DNA of 50,521 bases from Rickettsiales bacterium (lineage in GTDB: Bacteria; Pseudomonadota; Alphaproteobacteria; Rickettsiales; UBA1997), in the NCBI GenBank assembly GCA_035470525.1, contig DATIQT010000067.1, positions 1 through 50,521 on the forward strand, in the 5' to 3' direction. Below the pieces are notes generated by a model. That model was not told the origin of the DNA. It searched no databases and saw nothing but the letters and a program-made list of their open reading frames with translations. This document shows, piece by piece, positions 10,718-14,407 of this stretch (position 1 is its first letter; each line of letters starts with the position of its first letter). Both the position numbers and the translations under genes were made by a program.

Positions 10718-10993
10718 ATGCAAAACATAAAGAATTACAAATTTATAGAAGAATTAAAATTACTACCTTTTGTGAAGGAAGTTTGGCTTTACGGTTCAAG
10801 AGCAAGAGGCTATAATGAAGAAAAATCAGACATAGACTTAGCAATTATTTGCAATGAGAATTATGATTCGAGCAAAATTACAGAAATAATTGAAAATGCA
10901 GACACTTTATTAGAAATTGATTATATTGATTTTAATAAATTAAAAGATAATAAATTTAAAGAAAGAGTAAGAAAAGAAAAAGTAGTTTTATGA
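10718..10993 (+). CDS. mntA: MntA-type minimal nucleotidyltransferase (type VII antitoxin)
   Basis: NTase motif LYGSRARG...SDIDLAI. The ORF has 91 aa and a 4-nt ATGA overlap with the next ORF. Confidence 0.7.
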   Translation: MQNIKNYKFIEELKLLPFVKEVWLYGSRARGYNEEKSDIDLAIICNENYDSSKITEIIENADTLLEIDYIDFNKLKDNKFKERVRKEKVVL

Positions 10994-11394
10994 ATCAAAA
11001 AATTTTAGACAAATTTAAAAATCTAACTAAAGCTTTTGAAAAATTTTCAGAAATTGTAAGTGCTGAAGTTGAAGATGAAATAATCAAAAGAGATGCTTGC
11101 ATTCAACGATTTGAATTTACAATAGAATTATTTTGGAAATTCTTAAAATTATATATGATTGAAAATGGGGAAAAAGAAATTAATTTTCCAAGAGAAGTAT
11201 TACAAAAAGCTTACAAATACAATTTAATAAACAATGAAGAAATCTGGTTAAACATGTTAACAGATAAAAATAGAACTTCTAACATTTACGATGAAGAAGA
11301 AATTGAAAAAATTTATAGCAATATAAGAAATAACTATTATAATGAGATGAAAGCTTGCTATAATTTGTTAAAAGAAAGAGTAAAAAGTGATTAA
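10990..11394 (+). CDS. hepT: HepT-like / HI0074-family nucleotidyltransferase substrate-binding protein (toxin partner)
   Basis: 134-aa helical protein with the RDA.IQRFEFT.EL.WK.LK pattern typical of the HI0074 family. It is translationally coupled to mntA. Confidence 0.6.
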   Translation: MNQKILDKFKNLTKAFEKFSEIVSAEVEDEIIKRDACIQRFEFTIELFWKFLKLYMIENGEKEINFPREVLQKAYKYNLINNEEIWLNMLTDKNRTSNIYDEEEIEKIYSNIRNNYYNEMKACYNLLKERVKSD

Positions 11395-11470: not shown

Positions 11471-14407
11471 ATGACTAAATTAAATAAAAAATATATCTTC
11501 GCAGAAAGCGAAAAAAAGTGGCAAGAATATTGGCAAGAAGCTAAAATTTTTCAATTCAATTGGAATGACACAAAAAGAGAAAATATCTATTCAATAGATA
11601 CACCACCGCCTCATGTTTCTGGCGCATTGCATATGGGACACATTTTTGGTTATTCTCAAATGGATACAATCGCAAGATTTCAAAGAATGTCAGGCAAAAA
11701 TGTATTTTATCCAGTTGGTTTTGATGACAATGGTCTTCCATCAGAAAGATATGTTGAAAAAAAGCTTAACATAAAAAGCAAATCAATAGACAGACAAGAG
11801 TTCGTTAAAATTTGTGATAAAGAAATTCAAGATGCTGAACAATTTATGAAAGAAGAATTTATAAAAATGAATTATTCATTTGATTTTGATGAAGCATACA
11901 GAACAATATCTCCAACAGCAAGAAAAGTTTCTCAAATGTCATTTATTGATTTATGCAATAAAAATAAAGTTTATAGAAAAGAAGAGCCGATAATTTGGGA
12001 CGTTGTGGATCAGACAGCTTTAGCACAAACAGAAGCTGAAGATGCAGAGAAAGAAAGCCAGATGAATTATTTGAAGTTTGAATTGACTGACGGAAAAACA
12101 AGAGAGCAATTAGAAATAATGACCACCCGTCCAGAACTTCTCCCAGCTTGTGTTGCTATCTTCACTCACCCAGACAACAAAGACAAATACTTAGGCAAGA
12201 AAGCTATTACTCCGTTAGGTGTTGAAGTTCCTATTCTATTTGATGAAACTGTAGACAAAGAAAAAGGAACTGGTGTAATGATGTGTTGTACTTTTGGTGA
12301 CAATGCAGACGTTGAAAAATATAAAAAATATAATCTTCCTTTGAAAATTATAATTAATGAAAAAGGTTGTTTGTATTTTGATAATGTTCCTGAAATTGAT
12401 GAAAAATATAAATCAGAATTGAATGGTTTATTTACGACTAAAGCTAGAGAAAAAATATTGGAAATTCTCAATGAAGAAGGAAAAATCACTAGAGAGCCTG
12501 AAAAAATTATTCATGCAGTAAAAGTTGGTGAAAGGTCAAAAAGCCCTCTTGAAATTCTTGTTAAAAGTCAGTGGAACATTAATGTTCTTGATATAAAAGA
12601 TGAATTACATAAAAAAGCTGATGAAGTGCAATGGCACCCAGAATGGATGAAAGGTAGAATACACAGCTGGATTGATGGTTTAAGTTGGAACTGGACTATT
12701 TCAAGACAAAGATTTTTCGGTGTCCCAGTGCCATGTTGGTATTCTAAAAAAGATGGAAGTGTAATTTTACCATCTATGGAACAATTACCAGTAGACCCTA
12801 CAGTTGATTTACCTAAAGGTTATACTAAAGATGAAGTAATTGGCGAAACTGACGTTTTTGATACTTGGATGACTTCATCTGTAAGTCCACAATTATCAAC
12901 TCAATCAATCACTGAAGAATTGACTTGCGATAAAGAAAGAGCTAAAACTTTAAATTTACCTTTTGATTTGAGAACACAAGGACATGATATTATTAGAACT
13001 TGGGCTTTCTGTACTTTAACAAAAGCTTATTTACATCAAAATATAATTCCTTGGAAAAATATTTTCGTTAATGGTTTCTGCTTGGCTAGCGATGGAACAA
13101 AAATGTCAAAGTCAAAGGGAAATGGTGTTGATCCAGTTAAAACAATAAATGAATTTGGTGCAGATGCTGTTAGATATTGGGCTTTAAGTTCTCAATTAGG
13201 AACAGATACAAACTATTCAATAGATATGATTAAAATGGGACAGAAATTAATCACAAAATTGTTTAATAGTGCGAAGTTTGCGGAAATGATGTTTGATAAT
13301 TTGGATTCTATGACTCCCCCTTCCACCTTGAGGGGAAGGGGTCAGGGGTTAGGGGTAGAACATCTTTACTCCGAAAAAACTCTTGAGCAAGCTAAAAAAT
13401 TAAGACAAGAGTCAAATTTACCAGAAAAAATTTTGTGGGAATTTTTAAGAAATAATCAATTAAATGGATTAAAATTTAAAAGACAACAACCTATTGATAA
13501 ATATATTGTTGATTTCGCTTGTTTAAGTGAAAATGTTATTATTGAGATTGATGGAAAGGTTCATGAGATTTTTAATAAAGAAAAAGATGAATTAAGAGAA
13601 GAAGCTTTAAGAAAACTAGGTTATAGAATAATTAGATTTAAAGCTAATGAAGTAGTTGATGATACTTTTGGAGTATTAGATAAAATTAGTGAGTTTGTAA
13701 ATAAACCCCTAACCCCTACCCCTTCCCCTCAAGGGGGAAGGGGGAGTAATCTCTCAAATGCTCAACAAGACATTTCAAATGGTTTAATTTTTGAAACAAT
13801 TGACAAATGGCTAATTTCAAGAATTTATTCAACAATTACACAAGCTACAAAATCGCTTGAAAATTATGAATACGGAAAAGCACTTGAAGTTATAGACAGT
13901 TTCTTCTGGAATGATTTTTGTGATAACTATTTGGAAATAGTAAAGGTTAGATGTTATGGTGCAAATGGTACAAAATATCAAGGCATTGAACTATCAAAAG
14001 AAGAAAAAGAAAAAATTGATAGAGAGCAACAAAGCGCAATTAGAACAATTTATTATGTATTCAATGCAATATTGAAATTATACTCTCCATTTACACCTGC
14101 AATTTGTGATGAAATATATTCATGTGTATATGAAAATGAGTTTAATCAAACTAAATCAGTTTCTTCAAGAGGAAATTGGGCAAAATCTATAGATTTTGTT
14201 GAAAACAAAGAAATTGATGAAATTGGAAAAGTTATTTTGAATACAATAACAAATGTTAGAAAAGAAAAATCTGAAAAGAATATTTCAATAAAAGAATTAA
14301 TTGATGAAGTTAAAATCGAAAGTCCTTTGAATGAGAAAATTTCAAAAGACATTGGTTTGATTGAAGATTTAAAAAATGTGTGTAATGCTAAAAAAATAAG
14401 GTTTTAA
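11471..14407 (+). CDS. valS: Valine--tRNA ligase carrying an in-frame insertion of about 144 aa
   Basis: HIGH-type motif PPPHVSGALHMGH and KMSKS (TKMSKSKGNG). An anticodon-binding helical domain follows the insert (DKWLISR...FCDNYLE). Confidence 0.88.
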   Translation: MTKLNKKYIFAESEKKWQEYWQEAKIFQFNWNDTKRENIYSIDTPPPHVSGALHMGHIFGYSQMDTIARFQRMSGKNVFYPVGFDDNGLPSERYVEKKLNIKSKSIDRQEFVKICDKEIQDAEQFMKEEFIKMNYSFDFDEAYRTISPTARKVSQMSFIDLCNKNKVYRKEEPIIWDVVDQTALAQTEAEDAEKESQMNYLKFELTDGKTREQLEIMTTRPELLPACVAIFTHPDNKDKYLGKKAITPLGVEVPILFDETVDKEKGTGVMMCCTFGDNADVEKYKKYNLPLKIIINEKGCLYFDNVPEIDEKYKSELNGLFTTKAREKILEILNEEGKITREPEKIIHAVKVGERSKSPLEILVKSQWNINVLDIKDELHKKADEVQWHPEWMKGRIHSWIDGLSWNWTISRQRFFGVPVPCWYSKKDGSVILPSMEQLPVDPTVDLPKGYTKDEVIGETDVFDTWMTSSVSPQLSTQSITEELTCDKERAKTLNLPFDLRTQGHDIIRTWAFCTLTKAYLHQNIIPWKNIFVNGFCLASDGTKMSKSKGNGVDPVKTINEFGADAVRYWALSSQLGTDTNYSIDMIKMGQKLITKLFNSAKFAEMMFDNLDSMTPPSTLRGRGQGLGVEHLYSEKTLEQAKKLRQESNLPEKILWEFLRNNQLNGLKFKRQQPIDKYIVDFACLSENVIIEIDGKVHEIFNKEKDELREEALRKLGYRIIRFKANEVVDDTFGVLDKISEFVNKPLTPTPSPQGGRGSNLSNAQQDISNGLIFETIDKWLISRIYSTITQATKSLENYEYGKALEVIDSFFWNDFCDNYLEIVKVRCYGANGTKYQGIELSKEEKEKIDREQQSAIRTIYYVFNAILKLYSPFTPAICDEIYSCVYENEFNQTKSVSSRGNWAKSIDFVENKEIDEIGKVILNTITNVRKEKSEKNISIKELIDEVKIESPLNEKISKDIGLIEDLKNVCNAKKIRF
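13314..13746 (+). mobile_element. DUF559 (Vsr-like endonuclease) element with 42-43 bp GC-rich terminal inverted repeats, inserted in frame in valS
   Basis: The left TIR is 13314-13356 (ctcccccttccaccttgaggggaaggggtcaggggttaggggt). The right TIR, 13705-13746, is its reverse complement with 1 mismatch and 1 indel. The interior encodes AKKLRQESNLPEKILWEFLR...GLKFKRQQPIDKYIVDFAC...IIEIDG..H....D..R...L...GY.IIRF.ANEV, the DUF559 signature. Confidence 0.8.

Follow-up and report, generated by a model that had tools for sequence, protein, structure and literature searches.

The valine–tRNA ligase gene (valS) on contig DATIQT010000067.1, from a Rickettsiales bacterium, contains an in-frame insert that combines hairpin-forming inverted repeats at its two ends with a complete DUF559/Vsr-like nuclease domain between them. 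We analyzed this contig at its full length (50.5 kb, 27% GC); it is called the window here, and scans of the window cover all of it. The reading that we favor, and regard as probable, is that the insert is a recent selfish mobile element, tolerated in valS and built for read-through, that spreads by means of its nuclease and is lost by way of its hairpins. The element would be tolerated because it is built to be read through: one frame is open from end to end and the length is a multiple of three, so the ribosome translates valS across it.

An In-Frame Element in valS

In the window valine–tRNA synthetase (ValRS), Pfam detects tRNA-synt_1 (E 2e-83) and Anticodon_1 (E 2e-29). The host codons are under normal purifying selection (ratio of nonsynonymous to synonymous substitution rates, dN/dS, 0.08–0.11 against relatives), and a public protein, P0037, named valine–tRNA ligase and belonging to a Rickettsiales bacterium metagenome-assembled genome (MAG), is identical to the window ValRS. 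The original prediction was that the valS frame runs straight through the insert, and it does (Table 1). Specifically, the insert holds no stop in the host frame, 16–25 stops in the other two forward frames, and 6–13 in the reverse frames; the chance that a frame would stay open over the 115 interior codons in a 27% GC genome is 4e-5. The boundaries given earlier, 13314–13746 (433 nt), were one base short on each side, and the 435-nt insert is indeed a multiple of three. It starts with TPPSTLRGRGQGLGV and ends with NKPLTPTPSPQGGRGS.

The insert lies where it had been placed, after KMSKS and before the anticodon-binding helices. Chain residues 5–599 and 606–662 of Thermus thermophilus ValRS (1GAX) align with query residues 6–614 and 777–833; the break between 599 and 606 puts the element in a linker of ~6 residues that leads from the stem-contact fold to the anticodon-binding bundle. 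The insert had also been described as far more GC-rich than its host. That description fits the two ~45-nt ends (GC 0.62) and fails for the interior, at 0.25 against 0.27 for the contig.

The ends are inverted repeats, each of which forms a hairpin, as anticipated: over 45 nt, left and right are 84% complementary. As single-stranded DNA, the left hairpin folds at -9.5 kcal/mol, with one extra pair inside its 8-bp stem, and the right hairpin at -13.8 kcal/mol. Because the terminal hairpins are near-palindromic, they are direct repeats as well as inverted ones (28 nt, 75%), spaced 402 nt, or 134 codons, apart. They are the only two perfect GC-rich hairpins with a stem of at least 8 bp in the window. 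With up to one mismatch, the motif GGGGAAGGGG occurs at six sites in the window, where 0.32 are expected, and five of the six are inside the insert. The four G4 tracts of the left repeat fit a G-quadruplex motif, which could form in DNA and in mRNA, and are mirrored in the right repeat as a C-rich run at 13706–13728, with the G tracts on the other strand. On reading the sequence, the C-runs and G-runs translate as Pro, Gly, Ser, Arg, and Leu, and two of three frames are stop-free in either orientation. The right-end peptide TPSPQPSPGGRGS is also the C terminus of free-standing DUF559 proteins (P0015, P0022, and P0036).

Elsewhere in the window, the ileS stop codon is closely followed by a GC-rich double hairpin, TTTCCCCTCCTTGAGGGGAAATGTCCGAAGGACAAAGGGGAGC, at 29135–29178. 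The first half is similar to the element's terminal hairpin, and the feature may be either a terminator or a solo hairpin that has degenerated.

Table 1. Host gene, element, and element parts in the window
Feature	Position	Strand	Remarks
valS (valine–tRNA ligase) open reading frame (ORF)	11471-14407	+	978 aa, from the ORF list
Whole element, in-frame insert	13313-13747	+	435 nt, 145 codons; ValRS codons 615-759
Left terminal inverted repeat	13310-13354	+	45 nt; encodes (M)TPPSTLRGRGQGLG, a Pro/Gly-rich linker
Left terminal hairpin	13317-13341	+	CCCCTTCC-ACCTTGAG-GGAAGGGG; 8-bp perfect outer stem, 9-nt unpaired stretch
Four G4 tracts	13332-13355	+ (coding strand)	GGGGAAGGGGTCAGGGGTTAGGGG; read from the sequence
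DUF559/Vsr-like PD-(D/E)XK endonuclease domain	13379-13699	+	ValRS aa 637-743
Right terminal inverted repeat	13706-13750	+	Pairs with the left repeat; encodes PLTPTPSPQGGRGS(N)
Right terminal hairpin	13719-13743	+	CCCCTTCCCC-TCAAG-GGGGAAGGGG; 10-bp perfect stem

The DUF559 Domain

That the insert encodes a complete DUF559/Vsr-like domain is borne out by the match to PF04480 (E 5e-35; 120 bits, where the cut-off is 20.6), which spans profile positions 3–108 of 109. All but one of the family's near-invariant residues are present. D681, F682, E692, D694, G695, H698, D706, and R709 (ValRS numbering) are kept, the VDF...E-x-D-G-x-x-H core is intact, and the sole departure is N649, where 87% of the family has Thr. 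DUF559 and MTES_1575 are the only Pfam matches in the insert, and this is the single copy of DUF559 in the window. The domain has neither a start codon nor a ribosome-binding site of its own and is thus made only as part of ValRS.

In the Protein Data Bank (PDB), the domain matches 3HRL (E 1.6e-16). An AlphaFold2 model of the insert alone, built with 33 homologues, gives a DUF559 core at insert residues 21–130 with a predicted local distance difference test score (pLDDT) of ~90. With this model, Foldseek finds 3HRL, an uncharacterized Neisseria protein, as the nearest structure overall (template-modeling score, TM, 0.86). The nearest characterized enzyme is the homing endonuclease I-Bth0305I (3R3P; TM 0.74–0.77, E 8e-5), and Vsr (1CW0) matches at TM 0.50. 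The insert domain is accordingly modeled with a restriction-endonuclease-like fold. Foldseek also matched the model to large-subunit mitoribosomal proteins of Toxoplasma and Tetrahymena (9i05, 6z1p, and 9g6k; probability 0.92–1.0, query TM 0.45–0.55), which suggests that DUF559-like domains may have been recruited into mitoribosomes.

Filled and Empty Sites in Close Relatives

We compared valS at the DNA level in three relatives: L002, L001, and L003, which share 94%, 88%, and 74% ValRS identity with the window and whose host codons have a synonymous divergence (dS) from window valS of 0.41, 0.62, and 1.9, respectively. The insertion site of the window is empty in all three. The window junction reads ...GATAATTTGGATTCTATG-element-AATCTC..., and the empty L002 site reads ...GATAATTTAAAT/AGCAATACA... 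The position, called site C below, is therefore polymorphic for presence and absence, occupied in the window and vacant in these relatives. Judged from these alignments, the window element is a recent insertion into valS.

The relatives carry kindred sequences at another place in the gene. L002 carries an in-frame element of 393 nt in another loop of valS (L002:3623–4015, protein P0038). Its ends match the window repeats at 40 of 40 positions on the left and at 95% on the right, and its cargo is an AT-rich 104-aa segment unrelated to that of the window. This cargo has no Pfam match and is unrelated to the P0040 insert at the same loop. It was considered as a degenerate DUF559 and rejected as such: no frame gives an HMM signal, and DNA similarity is confined to the repeats. 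The L002 element looks like a cargo replacement or a non-autonomous relative. In the same valS region, L001 has a single, solo hairpin, and L003 has a DUF559 element with related ends whose nuclease shares 64% amino acid identity with the window copy (dN/dS 0.15 between the two). Further copies of the repeat, which the original prediction led one to seek, thus exist in relatives (L002 and L001) at the other valS site; the window contig has no second copy.

A separate difference lies upstream of valS. In the window, the interval from glyS to valS holds, at 10718–11394, a gene pair for a nucleotidyltransferase and an NTase-substrate-binding protein (MNT/HEPN-type). In L001, glyS and valS are directly adjacent, so that the pair is another presence/absence polymorphism.

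Three Loops of ValRS and Selection on the Element

To place inserts on a common scale, we made an alignment of 28 ValRS proteins found in the homology search, with residue numbers taken from P0042, which is insert-free (836 aa). Inserts occur at three loops. Site A, after residue 207, holds DUF559 in P0041, P0045, P0130, P0131, P0135, P0137, and P0154, and GNAT domains or unknown segments in other ValRS proteins. Site B, after residue 335, holds DUF559 in P0115–P0117, P0120–P0122, and P0124. At site C, after residue 615, the window has DUF559 and P0062 a GNAT domain. Further ValRS positions bear short hairpin-type peptides on their own, and solo hairpins or short hairpin-only in-frame inserts are found in P0039, P0106, P0116, P0131, and P0135. 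DUF559 elements thus occupy at least three different ValRS loops in different lineages of Rickettsiales-like valS. An ancestral ValRS domain would have spoken against insertion, and the segment is not one: close relatives lack it at the window position, and other lineages hold DUF559 at different loops.

GNAT acetyltransferase domains lie in, or are fused to, ValRS P0053, P0108, P0045 (site A), and P0062 (site C), in loops that also host DUF559; P0045 has a DUF559 element and a GNAT domain in tandem. In this Rickettsiales-like clade, GNAT domains are likewise inserted in or fused to the isoleucyl enzymes (IleRS) P0319, P0321, P0322, P0324, P0391, P0392, P0395, P0397, and P0398.

The site-B group shows how the element evolves once settled. 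There, DUF559 domains are 61–78% identical where their hosts are 68–87% identical, and the two values fall in step, indicating that element and host have long descended together vertically. From codon alignments of four site-B genes (six pairs), we obtained, for the host ValRS, dN/dS of 0.11–0.15 at dS 0.94–1.29; for DUF559, dN/dS of 0.06–0.14 at dS 0.96–2.25; and for the repeat codons, dN/dS of 0.66–2.2 at dS 0.08–0.43, this last estimate from ~28 codons each, with all six pairs in agreement. Thus, the nuclease is held as tightly as the synthetase, as a protein. The repeats, with dS far below ~1 and dN/dS of ~1, are constrained as nucleic acid and not as peptide.

DUF559 was present in 15 of 120 ValRS matches, a count inflated by a query that itself contained DUF559, and in none of 120 IleRS relatives. 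Among ValRS proteins at least 56% identical, the figure is 3 of 78, which establishes no preference, and the idea that valS is a preferred target was dropped.

Elements Beyond ValRS

A HMMER scan of 1.84 billion cluster representatives returned 20,672 DUF559 matches at E <= 1e-3. We classified the best 150 of these, calling a copy embedded when at least 60 host residues flank it on both sides. Of those 150, 45 are embedded in larger proteins, 27 are terminal fusions, and 78 are free-standing; the ranking may favor copies with flanks like the query's repeat peptides, and in high-GC genomes some "embedded" assignments could be over-extended ORFs. The embedded copies that we inspected are mostly in Type I HsdS proteins, with DUF559 between the two target-recognition domains. 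Other hosts are Eco57I/MmeI-type methylases and one TIM-barrel protein. Hairpin-type peptides border the embedded DUF559 domains; examples are SPLEGES..., TPPLRGSRQ..., and ...TPPQGGSD.

At the DNA level, the HsdS locus L150 carries an in-frame element with a 29-nt perfect repeat, CCCATCACTCCCCCCTTGAGGGGGAGTCG, and the same architecture appears in frame in the TIM-barrel gene of L024 and in the site-B valS of L025. In the free-standing copies L110 and L149, a hairpin and G-rich tail are followed by an ATG and DUF559 and then by a C-rich tail and hairpin. Terminal inverted repeats are likewise present in L002, L003, L024, L025, L110, L149, and L150. Across these loci, interior GC follows that of the host (0.25–0.64), and the ends stay at 0.56–0.71. 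In Brevundimonas (L008), a DUF559 gene stands between two genes, which we tentatively read from their ORF translations as astD and astB, and two hairpins follow DUF559.

Several features of individual loci are worth recording. L110 has a third, solo repeat copy (L110:630–700) directly upstream of another gene's ATG, with its inner part, GAACGGAGG, at the position of a ribosome-binding site; in L149, too, the G-rich tail precedes the DUF559 start codon. In each of the single ORFs P0176–P0180, a nucleotidyltransferase domain at the N terminus is joined to HsdS target-recognition domains, with DUF559 embedded. P0157 (377 aa), P0159, P0160, and P0162 have two or three tandem DUF559 domains; in P0157, repeats one and two are without the E-x-D-G motif.

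Hairpins of this kind are not confined to DUF559 elements. We scanned contigs of a genome collection, one without the window's own MAG, for the 21-mer hairpin TTCCMCCTTGAGGGGAAGGGG. It occurred at 20 loci, mostly in a different Clostridia repeat family that shares only the hairpin, and DUF559 adjoins it only in Brevundimonas L008. In a metagenome scan with the pattern GGGGAAGGGGN{1,3}GGGGTTAGGGGT, 2 of 126 matches adjoin DUF559. The pattern also caught simple tandem G-rich arrays and is too low in complexity for 2/126 to be a true ratio; it shows only that hairpins are common.

The other repeat family, from rumen and gut Firmicutes, shares the exact 21-nt hairpin TTCCCCCTTGAGGGGAAGGGG, which is followed there by GACCGC...GGTGGATGAGG. 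It is abundant and different from the element, with loci L004–L007, L011, L019, L020, L022, and L023 (Clostridia MAG RGIG3436) and further loci L009, L012, L015, L016, and L018. No DUF559 lies near these loci.

Probable Read-Through, Proposed Mobility, and Rival Explanations

How might an essential synthetase bear such a segment? AlphaFold models the host parts of the whole ValRS with pLDDT >90 on both sides of the insert; the insert itself is of low confidence there, since most alignment rows are gapped in that region. In the model of the insert alone, the repeat-encoded ends appear as low-confidence coil, and these Pro/Gly-rich ends model as disordered, flexible linkers. The insert is apparently translated as part of ValRS, and the open frame together with codon-level selection makes read-through the economical reading.

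The mechanism that we propose starts from the anatomy of the element: a repeat made of a hairpin and G tracts, a DUF559 ORF without its own start or stop, and the mirror-image repeat. The nuclease would hang as a separate domain from a short interdomain linker, and ValRS would remain functional. The ValRS-borne nuclease would recognize the hairpin ends or the empty target, and the resulting DNA nick or cut would let the element be copied into new sites or alleles by a repeat-dependent process akin to homing or transposition. DUF559 would thus be the mobility or homing enzyme. Loss could occur by recombination or slippage between the two terminal hairpins. Since the hairpins are direct repeats a whole number of codons apart, loss leaves an in-frame solo hairpin, and the products would resemble the solo hairpins of L001, P0106, and P0116.

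Several observations weigh against this proposal. The nuclease activity, the target, and the transposition of DUF559 elements remain predicted only. No target-site duplication or common target motif is recognizable at the filled and empty pairs compared, and the sites of those pairs are all in variable loops. The 50.5-kb contig contains one copy of the element. Such hairpins mostly occur without DUF559, as in the metagenome scan with its G-rich arrays; the L002 element has the same ends and no nuclease; and the arrangement varies, since the repeat tails point outward at L123. Long vertical retention under strong purifying selection is not expected of a homing gene that is fixed and purely parasitic; for such selection to last at one site, either recurrent homing in populations or a benefit to the host is needed. 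Finally, Caulobacter VsrA, the one DUF559 protein studied genetically, has been interpreted as a mismatch-repair nuclease (PMC12907096).

Some of these observations could also be explained if the hairpin repeats were the primary mobile or recombinogenic unit, similar to MITEs (miniature inverted-repeat transposable elements) or repetitive extragenic palindromic sequences (REPs), and DUF559 either homed into them or was a passenger. In the first case, the "inverted repeats" would be the two halves of the palindromic DUF559 target, and in the second, another enzyme would move the unit. DUF559 genes are vastly fewer than such hairpins, ValRS proteins contain hairpins alone or in short hairpin-only inserts, the L002 element joins identical ends to non-DUF559 cargo, GNAT domains occupy the same ValRS loops, and the L123 ends face the other way. 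Nevertheless, DUF559 is found along with hairpin ends in distant hosts that differ in GC content, the elements neither contain nor adjoin another candidate mobility gene, and hairpin-only copies are equally well explained as deletion derivatives that arise through the direct-repeat hairpins. We consider this explanation unlikely. We give still less credence to a domesticated DUF559 now working for its host, perhaps as a Vsr-like nuclease for T:G mismatches, with the repeats as relics, linkers, or regulators. The low dN/dS maintained at a fixed site while hosts diverged to dS ~1, the conserved catalytic residues, and the cellular DNA-damage phenotype of VsrA (PMC12907096) speak for such a role. 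On the other hand, the insert in the window lineage is recent and missing from the closest relatives, insertions are at different loops in different lineages, the repeats are conserved at synonymous sites and not as peptide, and the same element is found in unrelated proteins and at intergenic sites.

Two further possibilities concern whether the segment is present in the mature enzyme, or in the genome, at all. It could be removed as an intein, an intron, by RNase III excision, or by ribosomal bypassing, and the transcript can fold into a panhandle, a ~45-bp stem of the two repeats (-151.5 kcal/mol; shuffled sequences, -94.8 +/- 5.7; z -10). However, the frame is open over 145 codons and under codon-level purifying selection. 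The original prediction saw no intein junction residues, and we concur: Pfam finds no Hint domain in the insert, which starts with Thr-Pro and ends with Gly-Arg-Gly-Ser, and the C-terminal junction, GGRG/SNL, has no His-Asn. Nor is there an intron or ribozyme match, as no Rfam covariance model reached threshold (best, atoC, 22.7 bits against a gathering value of 50, E 0.2). Moreover, we know of no mRNA religation after RNase III cleavage in bacteria. Removal is therefore very improbable in our judgment. We hold an assembly chimera or artifact to be more improbable yet. The contig does belong to a MAG, and a single contig encodes the exact protein, but both junctions keep the reading frame, the interior is like the host in GC, and analogous inserts occur in many independent assemblies (NCBI, ENA, JGI, and Logan), which is what makes an artifact so unlikely.

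Programmed inversion of the segment via its repeats was also considered and rejected: after inversion, each frame of the segment would contain 6–13 stops, and an essential enzyme would be cut short. DUF559 genes have been listed, without comment, as enriched among predicted inversion targets or inverted-repeat-associated genes (PMC9881135).

Implications

We return to the favored reading, a selfish element tolerated by read-through. Under it, a nuclease-encoding selfish element apparently persists in an essential aminoacyl-tRNA synthetase without splicing, by virtue of ends that themselves encode flexible linkers. It provides a concrete, testable hypothesis for DUF559 and may offer an enzyme for in-frame palindromic elements. 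The HsdS insertions between target-recognition domains suggest that the elements may reshape restriction–modification specificity genes. Annotation pipelines name the genes "valine--tRNA ligase" or "endonuclease domain-containing protein," and the element is overlooked.

More tentatively, DUF559 with hairpin repeats could be a bacteria-wide, unrecognized class of mobile element, adapted to ORFs, whose sole enzyme is a Vsr-like nuclease acting on hairpins and whose deletion derivatives include inserts like Rickettsia palindromic elements (RPEs). We regard this broader idea as possible, with the odds somewhat against it. If it is true, such elements live in ORFs as translated, unspliced domains, a sort of "intein without splicing"; RPE-like in-frame palindromic inserts gain a candidate mobilizing enzyme; and the large DUF559 family, with its 20,672 cluster representatives, gains a biological role.

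Comparison with Known Systems

RPEs, described by Ogata et al. in 2000, are reportedly translated as surface peptides and tolerated in essential proteins; they are said to be ~100–150 bp long and to encode no enzyme, and, to our knowledge, the enzyme that mobilizes them has been unknown since their description. The likeness drawn earlier between RPEs and the window insert is apt: both are in-frame palindromic insertions in a Rickettsiales protein gene, and here an enzyme gene lies inside. The likeness is one of architecture, as the window element differs in its GC-rich C-run/G-run hairpin ends and its complete nuclease domain.

Among homing endonucleases, I-Bth0305I (PDB 3R3P) shares the PD-(D/E)XK Vsr-like fold, as the TM score given above indicates. 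"Fractured gene" homing endonucleases of this Vsr-like (EDxHD) kind are selfish and reside in genes that are conserved and often essential, either within group I introns or between the halves of split inteins, and they are translated separately (PMC2677866). The window element, by comparison, has no intron or intein, is bounded by hairpin inverted repeats, has no start codon of its own, and remains part of the host protein; its DUF559 also lacks the extra DNA-binding region of I-Bth0305I. Homing endonuclease genes typically have one conserved target site and are housed in an intron or intein or between genes, whereas the elements described here are found at three or more ValRS loops and in unrelated genes, and the window copy is in frame inside an ORF. 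Inteins resemble the element in that they are in frame in essential genes, obtain their nuclease via host translation, and are sporadic among close relatives. They differ in that the window element has no Hint domain or junction nucleophiles, and so no protein splicing, and in that their nuclease is LAGLIDADG or HNH rather than PD-(D/E)XK.

REP/RAYT systems (REPINs) and IS200/IS605 likewise pair a small, single-domain enzyme gene with inverted hairpin repeats that are also found alone. Those systems use HUH Y1 transposases with covalent intermediates, and REPs are extragenic. In contrast, the window element has no HUH Y1 transposase domain by Pfam, its PD-(D/E)XK enzyme cannot rejoin DNA alone, and the elements are often in frame within genes. 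Transposons with terminal inverted repeats and MITEs share such repeats with the element, which differs in having no known transposase (DDE, HUH, or Ser/Tyr recombinase), DUF559 being its sole domain by Pfam.

Caulobacter VsrA and Neisseria NGO0050 (PDB 3HRL) belong to the same Pfam family and share its fold. DUF559 proteins of this type have been described as free-standing, repair-type nucleases (PMC12907096), and a survey of the PD-(D/E)XK superfamily lists DUF559 only together with Vsr (PMC3424549). In the searchable literature, flanking repeats or an in-frame location are not reported for solitary DUF559 nucleases, and full-text literature, most subscription journals aside, describes neither DUF559 elements with inverted repeats nor in-frame DUF559 insertions. 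Set beside these systems, our finding extends both in-frame palindromic elements and Vsr-like homing endonucleases, and there is a real chance that it represents a new class of mobile element.

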